The notes beneath the pieces were generated by a model, which saw nothing but the letters and a program-made list of their open reading frames with translations, was not told the origin of the DNA and did no database searches. Made by a program: the position numbers and the translations under genes. A stretch of DNA of 64,000 nt from IMG/VR virus record IMGVR_UViG_3300022918_000180; one strand, written 5' to 3'. Of the stretch, positions 1 to 44,060 are shown piece after piece. Each line of letters opens with the position of its first letter. The stretch's first letter is position 1. The DNA comes from a virus.

Positions 1-107
1 GCGATCTCGTCACGGAGCGCGACGAACTGGCGGAATGAGAAGTCGAACACGACTTGGCTGTTGACGTGGATGACGATTTTCTCGGCGGTTTCTCGGTGGG
101 TGTTCAT
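1..107 (-). CDS. hypothetical early protein, 5' part only (runs off the left edge)
   Basis: ATG at 107 overlaps the TGA of the upstream MBL gene (ATGA coupling); frame stays open to the window edge. Confidence 0.5.
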   Translation of the reverse strand, partial: MNTHRETAEKIVIHVNSQVVFDFSFRQFVALRDEI

Positions 108-886
108 GAGTTTTCGATTTCAAGGTTGAATGTCTGGCCTTTGACCACAAAGCCGGCAAACAGGTGGCCTAACGGATGCGTCGGATCACCGTGATGGTAA
201 AGGTGCGTTTTATTCGTGATGGTGTATGGCAGACGGGCCAGGTCGGTGATGTGGGCGTGGACTCCGGACCGGTGTTCCGCCGGCAGCGTCTCGCAGTCGT
301 GGAAGATGATGTCGGCTTCGGTGTAGAACGGTGCCAGCAAATCGGGGCAGAACATCGTGTCCGTTGTGAAAAACACGGACTTGGACGGCCCAAATTCCCG
401 CCGGAAGAAAAGGCCGTAGGAGTGCTTGATGGTGTAGCCGCTCACGATATGGACGGTGGGGACGGCCTTGAACATCCATCCTTCCCAGCGGAAGAAGCCG
501 TTGGTCATCGGTTCGCAGTCGAAGTAGTCGGTCAGAGTCATCATCTTCCCCTGCACCGAGTCCAGACCGCCGCGGAGGCTGCGGTTCCAAAGCTCATCGA
601 AAATCTCCGGGACACCAAAGAGCTTCGGCCGCACCCGCGGCGGGATGAAGTAACGGGAGAAGGCGAACTGCTCCAGTCCCCCAATGTGGTCGGAATGGCA
701 GTGGCTGACGTAGACGCCGTCGATGTCCGCGAACGGGATACCCATCTCGTCCCGCAGGACGTAGGGCGCGGTGGTGCCGAAATCGACGAGCAGGCGTTTG
801 CCGCTTTCGCTGGTGAGCAGCAGGTTGGAGTTGCCGATGCTTATCGGCGAAAACGCGCCGCCGGATCCAAGGAATTGAAGTTTCAT
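104..886 (-). CDS. MBL-fold metallohydrolase, Apyc1 (anti-Pycsar)-like cyclic nucleotide phosphodiesterase
   Basis: Start MKLQFLGSGGAF at 886, ATGA-coupled to the upstream gene; HCHSDH metal motif, GGLE, VH, TTDT, FHDC, VHA and YHH motifs in the Apyc1/RNase Z-like arrangement. Confidence 0.8.
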   Translation of the reverse strand: MKLQFLGSGGAFSPISIGNSNLLLTSESGKRLLVDFGTTAPYVLRDEMGIPFADIDGVYVSHCHSDHIGGLEQFAFSRYFIPPRVRPKLFGVPEIFDELWNRSLRGGLDSVQGKMMTLTDYFDCEPMTNGFFRWEGWMFKAVPTVHIVSGYTIKHSYGLFFRREFGPSKSVFFTTDTMFCPDLLAPFYTEADIIFHDCETLPAEHRSGVHAHITDLARLPYTITNKTHLYHHGDPTHPLGHLFAGFVVKGQTFNLEIENS

Positions 887-1167
887 ACTGGTGGTGTCGG
901 TTGCAGTTTGGTGATCGCCACTGTCAGCCGTTCCCGGTCCTCCGGGGCGAGGGACGGCAGGGTGAGGATGTGACGGAGGATGTGACGGAGGTGGGTGAGC
1001 GTAAACACCGGCGATGCGCCTTCCTCGACCCAGCCGAGCGCCCGCTCGACCCAGCGGCTGGTGGTGAGTTTGGACGCCTCGTCGAACGCGGCCTGGGCGC
1101 GGGCGTCGTCCTCGGCGGTGCGCATCCGCAGTTTGATCCGGCGCGGCCGGCGGGGGTTGGTTTTCAT
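883..1167 (-). CDS. hypothetical protein
   Basis: 94 aa ORF, ATGA-coupled at both ends, C/A-rich leader. Confidence 0.6.
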   Translation of the reverse strand: MKTNPRRPRRIKLRMRTAEDDARAQAAFDEASKLTTSRWVERALGWVEEGASPVFTLTHLRHILRHILTLPSLAPEDRERLTVAITKLQPTPPV

Positions 1168-1430
1168 GTTGGTTCGGAAGGGTTGGCGCCGACCCAGGCG
1201 GCGGTGGTCTCCAGCATGACCGCCGCCTGGCGGGTGTAGGTCGGATGGGCGAGGCGGTCCGCCGTGCGCCGCGTGAGCAGGGCCAGCAGGCGCAGGGCAT
1301 CGGCGGGGCTAAGGGCGTCGAGGAGGCGCTCGGCGTGCTGCCGGGTGGTGAGCGAGGCATCCGGCATCGGGCGGATGATCTCCACTTTGGTCTCGGGGCG
1401 GTTGAATGGAGTCGGTGGGGTGGTGTTCAT
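1164..1430 (-). CDS. hypothetical protein
   Basis: 88 aa ORF in an ATGA-coupled chain. Confidence 0.6.
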   Translation of the reverse strand: MNTTPPTPFNRPETKVEIIRPMPDASLTTRQHAERLLDALSPADALRLLALLTRRTADRLAHPTYTRQAAVMLETTAAWVGANPSEPT

Positions 1431-6835: not shown

Positions 6836-7675
6836 ATGAAAGCACGCACCATTGAAAAAATCCTCCGCAGGAAATTCGACGCCTTTACCGCGACGATCAC
6901 CGACCAGTTTGTCAAGGCGCTCGTCATGAAGAACTCCCTCATCACCGGCGGCAGTATTGCTTCCATGCTGCTCGATGAGCAGGTGAATGACTACGATGTC
7001 TACTTCACGGATGCCCCCACTGCGCTCGCCGTGGCCCGTTACTATGCCACGATTTTCAGCACCACCCCGCCGGAGGTCACCCTCGACGAAGCCGGCCGTG
7101 TGTTTTTCAAGGCTGACCGCATCGGCGGCAACCCGGCCCTGCGGATGGATGATCCCAACCCCGAGGACTCCGGCGCGCAGGAAGCCATCGACGCGGCCGC
7201 CAACGACGGCACCTACCGCCCGCTCTTCATCTCCCCCAATGCCATCACGCTGTCCGACGGCGTGCAGATCATCATCCGGTTCTACGGATCGCCTGACGAG
7301 ATCCACTCCAACTACGATTTCGTCCATTGCACCAACTGCTGGGAAAGCAGCACCGGCAAACTCACCCTGCGTGCGGCGGCGCTTGAGGCCCTGCTCACAA
7401 AGGAGCTGCGTTACGTCGGCAGCAAATACCCTCTCTGCTCGATCATCCGCACGCGCAAATTCATCAAACGCGGGTGGAGCATCAACGCCGGTCAGTATCT
7501 TAAAATGGCCCTGCAGTTGAACGAGCTGGACCTCCTCGACATCTCCACCCTCCAGGATCAGTTGATCGGCGTGGACTCCGCCCACTTCAGGATGCTGCTG
7601 AGCCAGATCGCGGAATCGGACCCGGAGAAGGTCAACACCGGTTACATCATCGAGATCATCGACCGTCTTTTCTAA
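6836..7675 (+). CDS. nucleotidyltransferase-fold protein (Pol beta superfamily)
   Basis: ITGGSIAS-x7-NDYDVYF (hGG..DxD) motif; DFVHC and RKFIKRGW motifs as in phage tRNA-NTase/poly(A) polymerase-like proteins. Confidence 0.65.
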   Translation: MKARTIEKILRRKFDAFTATITDQFVKALVMKNSLITGGSIASMLLDEQVNDYDVYFTDAPTALAVARYYATIFSTTPPEVTLDEAGRVFFKADRIGGNPALRMDDPNPEDSGAQEAIDAAANDGTYRPLFISPNAITLSDGVQIIIRFYGSPDEIHSNYDFVHCTNCWESSTGKLTLRAAALEALLTKELRYVGSKYPLCSIIRTRKFIKRGWSINAGQYLKMALQLNELDLLDISTLQDQLIGVDSAHFRMLLSQIAESDPEKVNTGYIIEIIDRLF

Positions 7676-10080: not shown

Positions 10081-10179
10081 GAGGCCGATTAATTGGGAAT
10101 ACTTCGGGCGCGCTTGCGGAGGGTTGATCTCCTCCACTATTAACCGAAATGGCAGGTTCAAGTCCTGCCGGCCTCGCCA
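10081..10179 (+). ncRNA. tRNA-like RNA 1 (non-canonical anticodon domain)
   Basis: GAGGCCG/CGGCCTC acceptor stem, GCAGG-TTCAAGT-CCTGC T arm, encoded CCA; anticodon region is TTCGG/CCGAA enclosing a 36-nt insert. Confidence 0.6.
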
Positions 10180-10219: not shown

Positions 10220-10252
10220 GCTGCCTGCGGGGCGATACCACCCGCAGGCAGC
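10220..10252 (+). other. 12-bp GC-rich hairpin
   Basis: GCTGCCTGCGGG-9 nt-CCCGCAGGCAGC between the tRNA-like RNA and the next gene. Confidence 0.6.
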
Positions 10253-41677: not shown

Positions 41678-42306
41678 ACAAGTGCCTCATCGCCCGCTCC
41701 GACACCTACGGGATTCCCGGCGGGTGGAGGCTCACCCATCCGGCTCTCGGCGGACAGACCATTCTCGAACGCTCGCCTGAGCACGCGGTGGCGGCACTGG
41801 AGGCCATGCTGCGGGTCAACAACTTCGCCACCACCCGTGACGACTTGTGGGCCTATGCGAACGGCGTGTGGGGCCGCGCGGTGATCGCGTCCGGGGAAGC
41901 CGACCGCTGGATGGGCGGCCCGTTGCCGGACGATACGCTCGCAGCCGCGGAGGCGCCGGCGTTCATGCGCCGGCTGCTCAACCCGAAGGACTACGGCGGG
42001 GTCCTGTGGGGCACGCTGCACCTGCTCCCGCTGGTCTGGACCAAAGATGCGTGGATGGCGCACATCGCGCTGATGACCAGGATCATCGAGCCCGGCGGTT
42101 ACGAGCAGGGCTGCCCAATCTGCGCGGCTCACTGGAAGAGCTTCCTGTCCACCACTCCTCCGGAGTTCATCTCGTCAGCGTCGGCGGCGGCGGACTGGTC
42201 CCTGCGGGCGCACAATTCCGCGAGCAGTCATGCCGGTCACCCGCAGTGGACGTGGCGCGAGGCCGCTGAGAAGTGGGGCTGGCCGGGCGAGTGGGAGGCG
42301 GAATAA
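41674..42306 (+). CDS. ERV1/ALR-family FAD-dependent sulfhydryl oxidase
   Basis: NPKDYGGVLWGTLH, CPICAAHW (CxxC-x2-H), DWSLRAHN..S..G..W: the complete Erv motif set; ATGA-coupled to terL. Confidence 0.78.
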   Translation: MNKCLIARSDTYGIPGGWRLTHPALGGQTILERSPEHAVAALEAMLRVNNFATTRDDLWAYANGVWGRAVIASGEADRWMGGPLPDDTLAAAEAPAFMRRLLNPKDYGGVLWGTLHLLPLVWTKDAWMAHIALMTRIIEPGGYEQGCPICAAHWKSFLSTTPPEFISSASAAADWSLRAHNSASSHAGHPQWTWREAAEKWGWPGEWEAE

Positions 42307-42308
42307 AA

Positions 42309-42348
42309 GACCCGCCCAATTACGCATCGTTGAGAGGCGGGGCGGGTC
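42309..42348 (-). terminator. intrinsic terminator between convergent units
   Basis: GACCCGCCC...GGGCGGGTC followed by TTTTATT on the minus strand. Confidence 0.5.
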
Positions 42349-42353
42349 AGAAT

Positions 42354-42460
42354 CGGTGAATGCGGGACGGAGTCGAACCGTCAACGACTGGTTACTGTCG
42401 CGTTTCGCCAGTCAGGCTCCTGTGTCTGCCCGCGTGTCAACCACCCACGCTGCCGCATTC
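42354..42460 (-). ncRNA. tRNA-like RNA 2 (8-bp acceptor, degenerate anticodon arm)
   Basis: GAATGCGG/CCGCATTC acceptor, GACGG-TTCGACT-CCGTC T arm, GCGTG/CACGC D-like stem, long GACTGG/CCAGTC arm; ends A-CCG. Confidence 0.6.
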
Positions 42461-42465
42461 ATAAT

Positions 42466-42540
42466 TGGTGGAAGCGAGCCGGGATTGAACCGACCTGGTG
42501 GCACCTTACGGCACCCCCGTCACCAGATTTCGCCGCATCC
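42466..42540 (-). ncRNA. tRNA-like RNA 3 (75 nt, encoded CCA)
   Basis: GGATGCGG/TCGCTTCC acceptor, GTCGG-TTCAATC-CCGGC T arm, A-CCA end; no canonical D arm or 7-nt anticodon loop. Confidence 0.6.
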
Positions 42541-42556
42541 GCCACCAGATAACGCC

Positions 42557-42709
42557 TCACAGGCGCCCCATCAAGAACAAAATCAGTAAAACCAGCAACA
42601 CGAGGCCCACGCCGCCGTTGACGTAGTGGCCGCCACCGTAGCCGCCGGTTCCGAAGCCACCGAGCAGGACGAGAACGAGGAGGACGATGATAATGGTGGA
42701 GAGGCTCAT
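42557..42709 (-). CDS. DUF3309-like small membrane protein
   Basis: MSLSTIIIVLLVLVLLGG..GY..GGVGLVLLVLLILFLMGRL. Confidence 0.7.
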   Translation of the reverse strand: MSLSTIIIVLLVLVLLGGFGTGGYGGGHYVNGGVGLVLLVLLILFLMGRL

Positions 42710-43041
42710 GGTGCTGGTGTATTTTGGGATTCCACAAAAGCCCGCCATTCGGGCACGGCATTGACGATGGCCCCGAAGGCCTGGGCGACGGTCCCGGTCG
42801 GATCGGACTCCAAGTGGCTGAAGAGCTTGCCGCTCGATAGGGTCAGCCTGGCGCTTTCCGGTCCGAGCTTGTTTAGTGCCCGGTTGTAGGGCATGAGTTC
42901 CATGGAGACGTGCCCGGTGTCGGGGTTCTCCTCGGTGGGCAGAGCGGTGACTTCAATCACCATCTTGGTGATGTAGAGTTCGTCGAATTCTTCCCTTTCG
43001 GTGGGAGGGATCACGAGGGGTTCAGAAAGGGCGATGGGCAT
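42706..43041 (-). CDS. hypothetical protein (possible fibre-associated chaperone)
   Basis: 111 aa acidic ORF downstream of the fibre gene. Confidence 0.5.
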   Translation of the reverse strand: MPIALSEPLVIPPTEREEFDELYITKMVIEVTALPTEENPDTGHVSMELMPYNRALNKLGPESARLTLSSGKLFSHLESDPTGTVAQAFGAIVNAVPEWRAFVESQNTPAP

Positions 43042-43064
43042 ATTTTTGGCAGGTTAAAATGGTG

Positions 43065-44060
43065 TTATCCGATGACCCAGTTAGTTCCATTGCTGTAAAC
43101 CGGGACGAAGTTCGCCCCGCCGCCGGCTACAGTGGTTCCGATATTGGCCCCTGTGTGGGCGACGGTGGCGTCGTTCACCCAGGTTTTTGCTCCCTTGGAT
43201 GAGGCTGCCGTGTATTTCAGAGCCAGAGCAGCGACGGTGAATTCGGAAATCTTGAGGAGATCCACCTCCCAACTCGCGTTAGCCGTATTCCCGGAATTAC
43301 GGGCACGACCAAAACCATCAGCGGAGGCGTCAACCCTGAGTCGGCCGTTAACTACTAATCCCCCCGAAGCAGACGCAATAATGGATCCCGAGGCTGAGAT
43401 TATATTGCCTGCTCCAATAATAGTCCCAGAAGCATTTAGAGCCCCGGAGCTGGTCACGCTAAAAACCGAAGCCCCTCCATTGACATGGCAATCCAGAAAG
43501 TTTCCCGCAAATCCTGATGGGGCATTGATGCCCAGCCAAGTTCCCGCCGTGGCCCAAGTTGTCGCCGCCGCGGTCCCCGCAGGCTGAATCAACCAATGCG
43601 GCATCGTGGTCGTTCCGGTGCCTCCGGTGAAGATGGTTCCGGTCGCAAAGATGGCGGGAGTGCTGGCGGCGGATGCTCCGGATAGCGTCCCCCGCGTAAA
43701 AGCCATGGTTCCCGGGGTCGTTGCGCCGGTGCTGGTTGGGTTGATCGCAGATCCATTGGCAAACGCCAGTGGGCCTGTTCCGGTTTCATCGGTGATGAGC
43801 GCGGCCAGTTGTGCGGAGGTTGTCCCGGCGAACTGCGCCAGTGTTAGGCTTTTGCGGGCAACCGATGAGTCAACGGCAACTGTCTGACCAACTATAGTGA
43901 TGCCGTCGCCAGCCACTGATCCGGACGGGGAGAGCCCGGCAGCGAGTTCGGCTAAACCCTGAAGCAAGGCAAACGTGTCCTGATCGATCCGGTTCAGTCT
44001 GTGCCGTTCCTGAACTTTTGACAAGGTGAAATTCAAAACGTCGTCAAGAAGAGAGGCCAT
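43065..44060 (-). CDS. tail fibre / appendage protein
   Basis: Gly/Thr/Ala-rich beta repeats; VAGDGITI, DETGTG and YSNGTNW fibre motifs. Confidence 0.65.
   Translation of the reverse strand: MASLLDDVLNFTLSKVQERHRLNRIDQDTFALLQGLAELAAGLSPSGSVAGDGITIVGQTVAVDSSVARKSLTLAQFAGTTSAQLAALITDETGTGPLAFANGSAINPTSTGATTPGTMAFTRGTLSGASAASTPAIFATGTIFTGGTGTTTMPHWLIQPAGTAAATTWATAGTWLGINAPSGFAGNFLDCHVNGGASVFSVTSSGALNASGTIIGAGNIISASGSIIASASGGLVVNGRLRVDASADGFGRARNSGNTANASWEVDLLKISEFTVAALALKYTAASSKGAKTWVNDATVAHTGANIGTTVAGGGANFVPVYSNGTNWVIG

Follow-up and report, generated by a model that had tools for sequence, protein, structure and literature searches.

An orphan abiF-motif hairpin behind two tRNA-like RNAs in a temperate phage: a candidate anti-AbiF antitoxin-mimic cassette

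The small-RNA cassette described here lies on the minus strand of a stretch of viral DNA from IMG/VR record IMGVR_UViG_3300022918_000180. The whole stretch that was analysed, referred to below as the window, covers 64.0 of the ∼65.4 kb (65,352 bp) of one phage contig. Judged by the gene content of the window, the source is an uncultured temperate phage: Pfam searches identify a DUF2800 protein, an Enc34-type single-stranded DNA-binding protein, DNA polymerase A, a primase, an SNF2 protein and an integrase, together with a beta-helix protein, an amidase and an Apyc1-like anti-Pycsar protein. The cassette (42540–42302), as delimited from the sequence, consists of two transfer RNA (tRNA)-like RNAs, termed A and B, and a hairpin of the abiF-motif type, the RNA antitoxin of AbiF (Abi_2) toxins, with an adjoining U tract. 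It follows a DUF3309 gene at the end of a minus-strand operon containing the lysis amidase and, by this gene order, occupies an accessory slot downstream of the lysis genes. The features of the cassette, together with the neighbouring gene and a third tRNA-like RNA elsewhere in the window, are as follows.

42466–42540, minus strand: tRNA-like RNA A, 75 nt (sequence; acceptor/T scan; ARAGORN negative; Rfam tRNA-Sec 19.1 bits)
42461–42465, minus strand: spacer ATTAT, 5 nt, between A and B (sequence)
42354–42460, minus strand: tRNA-like RNA B, 107 nt (sequence; acceptor/T scan; ARAGORN negative; Rfam tRNA-Sec 28.6 bits)
42347–42353, minus strand: spacer ATTCTGA, 7 nt, from the 3′ end of B to the abiF hairpin (sequence)
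42310–42346, minus strand: orphan abiF-motif hairpin of the AbiF/Abi_2 RNA antitoxin type (Rfam RF03085; fold z = −5.0)
42302–42310, minus strand: U tract UCUUUUAUU, a likely intrinsic terminator (sequence)
42557–42748, minus strand: gene for a DUF3309 small membrane protein (Pfam PF11752, E = 9.5e-9; GC content at third codon positions, GC3, 0.78)
10081–10179, plus strand: third tRNA-like RNA (sequence; acceptor/T scan; ARAGORN negative; no Rfam tRNA match)

The hairpin is the most informative part of the locus and was overlooked in the preliminary description of this DNA, in which the two tRNA-like elements were simply followed by a terminator. The U tract of such a terminator is present and overlaps the stop codon (42304–42306) of a convergent Erv1-like gene, but the hairpin is not a plain terminator. 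An abiF motif is defined by an outer stem of 6 bp, an inner stem of 3 bp and a conserved loop of 11 nt, with a score of at least 37 bits. The window hairpin matches RF03085 with 42.7 bits (cut-off 37) over model positions 1–37 of 37, has the conserved loop CCUCUCAACGAUGC intact and folds with an energy well below that of shuffled sequences. By these measures it is a bona fide, full-length abiF motif. It is also an orphan, with no toxin gene in the window: an Abi_2 gene was found neither among the 53 window open reading frames (ORFs) by Pfam nor by a six-frame hidden Markov model search and tblastn of the window. The closest of ∼260 collected instances is the noncoding RNA (ncRNA) upstream of an Abi_2 gene (E = 1e-50) in Ruegeria sp. 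SCP10 (locus L183), in which both stems and the 11-nt loop are identical to those of the window hairpin, the difference being confined to the 3′ internal loop. When metagenome and genome contigs were searched with the exact 36-mer of the hairpin, no match was obtained.

AbiF, a widespread toxin of abortive infection, has been proposed as the ancestor of Cas13, and its RNA antitoxin was characterized only in 2025. The abiF-motif RNA RCd22 of C. difficile neutralizes AbiF by direct binding, in cis as well as in trans (bioRxiv 10.1101/2025.04.15.648962), and abiF-motif RNAs (AbiFr, RCd22) are also described as AbiF-neutralizing antitoxins in PMC13064643. In the complex of a Prevotellaceae AbiF, the RNA blocks the HEPN site (PMC12737573).

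The two RNAs that precede the hairpin retain of a tRNA only the acceptor/T minihelix, to which a GG D-loop is added in B. In RNA A the acceptor GGATGCGG/TCGCTTCC (42540–42533/42477–42470) has eight positions, of which six are Watson–Crick pairs and the other two a G-U and a U-U. A 5-bp stem closes the T arm GTCGG-TTCAATC-CCGGC (42494–42478), and the 3′ end (42469–42466) is formed by A73 and an encoded CCA. The body begins with a 6-nt linker (CGAAAT) and continues with a CTGGTG/CACCAG stem leading to the tip GTGCC-GTAA-GGTGC; this long hairpin capped by GUAA stands in for the D and anticodon arms. In RNA B both the 8-bp acceptor GAATGCGG/CCGCATTC (42460–42453/42365–42358) and the T arm GACGG-TTCGACT-CCGTC (42382–42366) are perfect, and A73 is followed by CCG rather than CCA. 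A 5-bp D-like stem (GCGTG/CACGC) encloses a loop that contains GG, a degenerate stem of 3–4 bp with the 10-nt loop AGACACAGGA is found in the place of the anticodon arm, and the long extra hairpin has the stem GACTGG/CCAGTC. All the features given in the preliminary description, including the 5-nt separation on the minus strand, are present in the sequence at the positions named there. Compared with shuffles, the fold energies give z = −0.35 for A and z = −1.36 for B, and the minimum free-energy fold of B retains the acceptor and the T arm.

The low or pseudo scores that had been anticipated from tRNA searches were also obtained. ARAGORN finds no tRNA or transfer-messenger RNA (tmRNA) gene anywhere in the 64-kb window, and a tmRNA was likewise not detected in the window by Rfam (RF00023). 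The best Rfam matches of A and B are with the selenocysteine tRNA family, tRNA-Sec (RF01852), at 19.1 and 28.6 bits, respectively, against a cut-off of 47; any score with RF00005 is no higher than the tRNA-Sec score and lies under the RF00005 cut-off of 29. Beyond these weak matches, no Rfam family (tmRNA, Y-RNA-like or others) was found for A or B. The likeness to bacterial tRNA-Sec consists of the 8/5 acceptor/T geometry, to which the long extra arm can be added in the case of B. With canonical decoding tRNAs, A and B have in common the stacking of the acceptor on a T arm of 5 bp, the TTCRANN loop and the G53-C61 pair. The differences from tRNA-Sec are that its D stem has 6 bp and a loop of 4 nt and that it has a loop bearing the UCA anticodon, both of which are lacking in A and B, as is any 5-bp anticodon stem with a 7-nt loop, U33 and an anticodon. 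Since the acceptor/T minihelix is kept while a decodable anticodon arm is absent, A and B are regarded as structural tRNA mimics and not as tRNAs, in agreement with the original suggestion. A protein-coding reading of the region was ruled out by codon-position GC: overlapping ORFs across the RNA region have GC3 values of 0.49–0.61, below the 0.73–0.87 of the real genes of the phage, and the stretch is thus taken to be noncoding.

A scan for acceptor/T modules (a TTCRANN loop on a 5-bp stem, with a complementary 7–8-nt acceptor closing 30–140 nt upstream) returned three elements in the window, A, B and 10081–10179, compared with a mean of 0.3 and a maximum of two in dinucleotide shuffles. The third element is located between two replication-operon genes. 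Its acceptor GAGGCCG/CGGCCTC has 7 bp, or 8 bp if C10080 pairs with G10176, its T arm is GCAGG-TTCAAGT-CCTGC followed by G-CCA, and a 36-nt insert is found at the place of the anticodon loop. A 12-bp hairpin (10220–10252) ∼40 nt downstream of it is not an abiF motif. In this one 65-kb phage, tRNA mimics number three and decoding tRNAs are absent. Neither blastn against ∼2 Mb of fetched loci nor blastn against a phage collection gave homologs of A and B, and in IMG/VR, which includes proviruses, no exact match was found to a 22-mer from the T arm plus acceptor of either RNA.

A 10-nt direct repeat is present on the minus strand, with copies ATCTGGTGGC (42550–42541) and ATCTGGTGAC (42528–42519). 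The upstream copy, together with GUGAGGCG (42560–42553, overlapping the DUF3309 stop codon), permits an alternative fold of RNA A in which the CCA end is sequestered. From the sequence, the repeat and the alternative fold could reflect a processing-dependent switch or a duplication scar.

The setting of the hairpin was compared between viral and cellular DNA. A scan of IMG/VR for the 15-nt abiF loop word gave at least 117 loci, a sample of the matches being listed, and the same word was searched as a cellular control in one genome per prokaryotic species (121 loci). Among the viral matches listed, Abi_2 lies downstream of the loop word in one of 140, compared with 33 of 121 cellular loci (Fisher p ∼1e-11); the toxin-less state is thus found in 139 of the 140 listed viral loci, the other having Abi_2/AbiD. 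A same-strand tRNA within 300 nt shows the opposite distribution, being found at 30 of the 117 viral loci among the matches listed versus one of the 121 cellular loci (Fisher p ∼1e-9). The geometry of the pair is fixed, with the tRNA either ending ∼17 nt before the loop word or starting 18–23 nt after it. At least five of the six outer-stem pairs are formed in 109 of 117 viral loci among the matches listed. Within the same listed matches, 55 of 82 distinct viral sequences have a perfect 6-bp outer stem, and these are built from 32 different stem sequences, which indicates that the viral hairpins are under structural selection. A U-rich tail follows 43 of these 55 perfect-stem hairpins, again among the matches listed. 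The cellular matches include a large share from Collinsella genomes (L153, L157, L161, L162 and many more), and, in the cellular set, six of the ORFs that follow the loop word encode voltage-gated chloride channels rather than Abi_2.

A second scan of IMG/VR, in which a T loop was required 15–45 nt before the loop word, returned 25 viral contigs. In nearly all of them an ARAGORN tRNA ends a few bases upstream of the hairpin, with a tmRNA in two, and the hairpin is often embedded in the tRNA arrays of large phages. None of these 25 tRNA-hairpin phage records, eight of them with a completeness of 90% or more, contains an Abi_2 that passes the cut-off. The 7-nt length of the spacer between B and the hairpin is common to several phage tRNA–abiF junctions (AACAGAA in L028 and L037, AACAGAT in L135). 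At 30 loci an acceptor/T module ends within 20 nt of the hairpin; 23 of these modules are ordinary tRNAs and seven are not, the window being among the seven. Perfect-acceptor modules that are ARAGORN-negative occur 17 times in 1.17 Mb of viral loop-word loci and not once in 0.83 Mb of cellular loci. What is new in the window is the presence of non-decoding 8/5 tRNA mimics at the place of the tRNA before an abiF hairpin.

Several further arrangements were observed in the collected loci. A metagenome scan gave further small cassettes of a tRNA, a hairpin and a U tract, one of them with a non-canonical tRNA-like element. In one metagenome contig (L272:2688–2764) a tRNA with a four-base anticodon (ggga by ARAGORN; Rfam tRNA 56.7 bits) directly precedes an abiF hairpin and U tract. 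In L126 and L129 (∼8100–8434 in L126) a phage tmRNA (Rfam 71.5 bits; ARAGORN tag DNKVIGHIGASASRLAVAV) is immediately followed by a hairpin with an abiF-type loop word; Rfam did not report the L126 hairpin as abiF at E values up to 0.1. ARAGORN-negative tRNA-like RNAs that are apparently mutually related occur at L002:945–1043, L062:6569–6642 and L111:5929–6005. They share a CAGTCCGAGCYAAYTGGA-type sequence in their 5′ part, a closed hairpin takes the place of the anticodon arm, and the viral contigs in which they are found each carry an abiF hairpin at a distance of 8 to ∼500 nt. The large ncRNAs GOLLD and ROOL share tRNA arrays with orphan abiF hairpins (L131:4193–4740, L128:7222–7692 and L124:123–706); in L131 the GOLLD-like RNA (92 bits, cut-off 150) ends ∼95 nt before the abiF hairpin. 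Of 47 ORFs scanned just 3′ of orphan viral hairpins, six have a Pfam HNH, five an HNH_2 and one an HNH_3 domain, and the loci concerned include L040, L047, L053, L058, L076 and L109. A 389-aa ORF of the L040 group (conserved at 377–411 aa) was considered as a hidden AbiF-like toxin and rejected, as it matches nothing in Pfam or PDB and gives no more than a faint HNH-type signal.

At the locus itself, the stop codon of the DUF3309 gene lies 17 nt upstream of RNA A, and the gene and the cassette therefore probably form one transcription unit; a terminator-like hairpin (42754–42740) precedes the gene. The convergent Erv1-like protein has 13 homologs at 53–65% identity in the protein database, for three of which ten loci were fetched, and no match in IMG/VR; for a neighbouring 331-aa protein one related locus was retrieved. 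All ten related-phage loci lack the cassette at the syntenic site and have neither intergenic space nor any RNA trace at this position. Because the site is empty in these ten loci, the cassette is interpreted as an acquired accessory insert. In one of them (L142, 7570–7705) a DUF3309 gene lies upstream of a lysis amidase and is not accompanied by the RNAs, while the window copy stands at the end of the operon beside the cassette; this arrangement suggests that the DUF3309 gene and the RNA cassette may have moved together as one accessory unit. The terminase-like protein had no match among 401 genomes from the order to which Ruegeria belongs, a result that is uninformative on the host. AbiF systems with near-identical hairpins do occur in Pseudomonadota.

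Two other ORFs of the window touch on these questions. A 418-aa protein (104–1360, minus strand) matches the Pfam Anti-Pycsar Apyc1 family (E = 1.3e-25; 90.8 bits, cut-off 50) and has a metallo-beta-lactamase fold. Its gene is likely to be a second anti-defence gene of the same phage, and the presence of an Apyc1-like gene supports an anti-defence setting for the cassette. A 279-aa ORF (6836–7675, plus strand) is a candidate Pol-beta-type nucleotidyltransferase with no sequence match in Pfam, PADLOC or PDB. A role for it as a CCA-type enzyme found no support in Pfam or PDB sequence searches; the ORF would matter if it were a true CCA-end repair or addition enzyme, as RNA B ends in CCG.

Comparison with known systems places the hairpin closest to the ncRNA antitoxins of AbiF systems (RF03085; AbiFr and RCd22; type III toxin–antitoxin systems), with which it shares a score above the cut-off and the conserved loop. 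In those systems the AbiF gene directly follows the ncRNA, whereas the window has no AbiF gene and its hairpin abuts the stop codon of the convergent Erv1-like gene. RCd22 moreover has two motifs and the window one, and the window hairpin is preceded by tRNA-like RNAs rather than by its own promoter. A phage antitoxin-RNA mimic is characterized by the phage carrying a copy of an RNA antitoxin but not the toxin, and by its motif match and gene context the window hairpin is such a copy. The precedent is phage PhiTE, which escapes ToxIN abortive infection with a pseudo-ToxI RNA, as shown at the bench (PMC3475682). Both are phage-borne, toxin-less look-alikes of type III RNA antitoxins for which neutralization in trans is proposed. 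Pseudo-ToxI differs in belonging to the ToxN family and in being a tandem array that is cut by the toxin, while the window has a single hairpin behind tRNA-like modules, a putative partner of the AbiF (HEPN) type and a function deduced from comparison.

For the tRNA-like RNAs, three other comparisons are instructive. The small RNAs that phage T4 encodes with its tRNA-type genes are likewise non-tRNA RNAs that presumably use the same maturation enzymes; they are surrounded by real tRNAs, of which the window has none, and the likeness is one of placement only. The tRNA-like modules of MALAT1–mascRNA and of the murine gammaherpesvirus 68 TMER (tRNA-miRNA) genes reportedly act in processing, the former at the 3′ end of a long noncoding RNA (lncRNA). 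In these cases, as proposed for the window, a tRNA-shaped element that is not aminoacylated abuts an RNA that is freed by RNase P or RNase Z, and RNA B indeed ends 7 nt before the hairpin, a spacing like that at the tRNA–hairpin junctions of other phages. They differ in being eukaryotic or from an animal virus and in their payload (an lncRNA 3′ end or pre-miRNAs), and cleavage in the window is predicted from its sequence. Finally, the tRNA-Lys of phage T5, as presented for PARIS resistance by Burman et al. (2024) and cited in PMC13064643, is also a phage tRNA-type counter-defence RNA; from that account it is a decoding tRNA that replaces a cleaved host tRNA, while A and B cannot decode.

The interpretation favoured here, to which about an even probability is given, is that the stretch is an anti-AbiF antitoxin-mimic cassette matured via tRNA processing, with A and B serving as processing and stability modules and perhaps as decoys. 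The anti-AbiF reading is supported by the hairpin being above the cut-off, orphan, toxin-less in nearly all of the listed viral loci and tRNA-linked. Taken separately, the hairpin is probably a working AbiF-antitoxin mimic, and A and B are, with the same probability, expressed and processed into tRNA-shaped RNAs that do not decode. Transcription of the cassette would accompany or immediately follow that of the DUF3309 gene and would terminate at the U tract of the hairpin. RNase P would then cut A and B at their 5′ ends, and B would be parted from the hairpin by the tRNA 3′-end machinery, as in a tRNA array. The freed hairpin could bind the HEPN dimer of a host AbiF in trans, such that the active site stays blocked, and this supply in trans would cover the exhaustion of the labile antitoxin RNA of the host during infection and so prevent abortive infection. 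Siting beside tRNA-type modules would provide expression, defined RNA ends and stability. A and B would mainly be processing and stability modules inherited from the tRNA-plus-hairpin arrangement, with a decoy role possible and secondary.

A number of points weigh against this interpretation. No sigma-70-like promoter was found within 42100–43300. The 3′ internal loop UAAUUG departs from the consensus and from the Ruegeria copy (CAAAUC), and the PbAbiF structure study, as summarized in PMC12737573, assigns the inhibitory nucleotides to a single-stranded bulge. Only 12 of the 25 tRNA-linked viral hairpins reach the Rfam abiF cut-off. The folding energies of A and B are no better than those of shuffles, A has a rival, more stable fold that engages the upstream leader, and no homologs in which selection on A and B might be seen were found. 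The third tRNA mimic adjoins no abiF hairpin, and ordinary tRNAs would suffice if A and B were only processing handles.

The alternative that survives best, although it is unlikely, is that A, B and the third mimic act against defence in their own right, either as decoys for tRNA-directed toxins or as copies of the tRNA-shaped partner RNAs of HEPN toxins, the abiF hairpin being one member of an array of RNA decoys. The selective retention of the acceptor/T minihelix, with a GG D-loop in B, and the closed hairpins in place of the anticodon arm speak for this reading, and all three mimics retain the parts that are recognized by tRNA-processing enzymes and by some toxins. The occurrence of three mimics and no decoding tRNA in one 65-kb phage, the position of A and B directly beside a recognizable antitoxin mimic and the restriction of ARAGORN-negative modules to the viral loci point in the same direction. 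Phage tRNAs neutralize PARIS according to Burman et al. (2024), as cited in PMC13064643, and Cas13-type HEPN RNases are reported to cleave tRNA anticodons and acceptor stems (bioRxiv 10.64898/2025.12.03.690598). However, no toxin partner or target was found and nothing points to toxSAS, MenT or PARIS, no bacterial RNA like A or B was found, and RNA A is missing the D loop that the tRNA elbow needs. Since the module before the hairpin is an ordinary tRNA at 23 of the 30 loci, a role in processing or co-expression is favoured at least as much as a decoy role. If the decoy-array explanation were true, these tRNA-shaped RNAs would be purely tools of immune evasion, and phage tRNA clusters would double as depots of antitoxin mimics.

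A slightly less probable explanation is that the cassette is a remnant, in which A and B are decayed tRNA genes and the hairpin is the leftover ncRNA of a prophage AbiF system that has lost its toxin and now serves as a late-operon terminator. The slot is the appropriate one, as prophage AbiF systems are typically found downstream of the lysis module (10.1101/2025.04.15.648962). The U-rich tails of 43 of the 55 perfect-stem viral hairpins among the matches listed would terminate transcription, A and B fold no better than shuffled sequences, and the cassette is private to the phage of the window. Against this, no toxin fragment is left, the U tract and the stop codon of the convergent gene overlap, and a 14-nt loop for which a terminator has no need is fully conserved. 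Decay would furthermore not be expected to strip three separate elements of nothing but their anticodon arms and to leave intact a perfect 8-bp acceptor, perfect T arms and canonical T loops, and phage copies of the hairpin are as a rule toxin-less (139 of 140 loci among the matches listed).

The two remaining explanations are both very improbable. That A and B are unusual functional tRNAs, decoding or aminoacylated and of a tRNA-Sec-like or allo-tRNA-like 8/5 type, would account for their geometry and for the weak Rfam tRNA-Sec matches, and B has the A73, GG D-loop and long extra arm that are used by anticodon-independent synthetases, but the GUAA-capped hairpin of A and the 10-nt loop on a 3–4-bp stem in B leave neither with a 7-nt anticodon loop or U33, ARAGORN is negative, the Rfam scores are far under the cut-offs and B ends in CCG. 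The attP site of a phage is often a copy of the 3′ portion of a tRNA gene, and the phage encodes an integrase, but an origin of the tRNA-like pieces as integration-related attP copies of host tRNA genes is at odds with their own 5′ and 3′ acceptor strands and non-canonical bodies, with their number (three) and their position away from the integrase gene, and with the failure to find the exact 22-mers of the T arm plus acceptor in IMG/VR, proviruses included.

No paper linking abiF-motif RNAs to phage tRNA clusters or to counter-defence was found in a literature search that did not extend to the Cell 2025 AbiF study. The antitoxin hairpin is nearly always toxin-less in phages, where it is often wired into tRNA arrays, while in cellular genomes it is commonly found before a toxin gene. 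If the hairpin neutralizes AbiF, it would join pseudo-ToxI as the second RNA-based case in which phages mimic an antitoxin, a case that is apparently common. Phage tRNA clusters would then gain a role in the expression and maturation of anti-defence RNAs, and a rationale would be offered for tRNA-shaped RNAs that are unable to decode.

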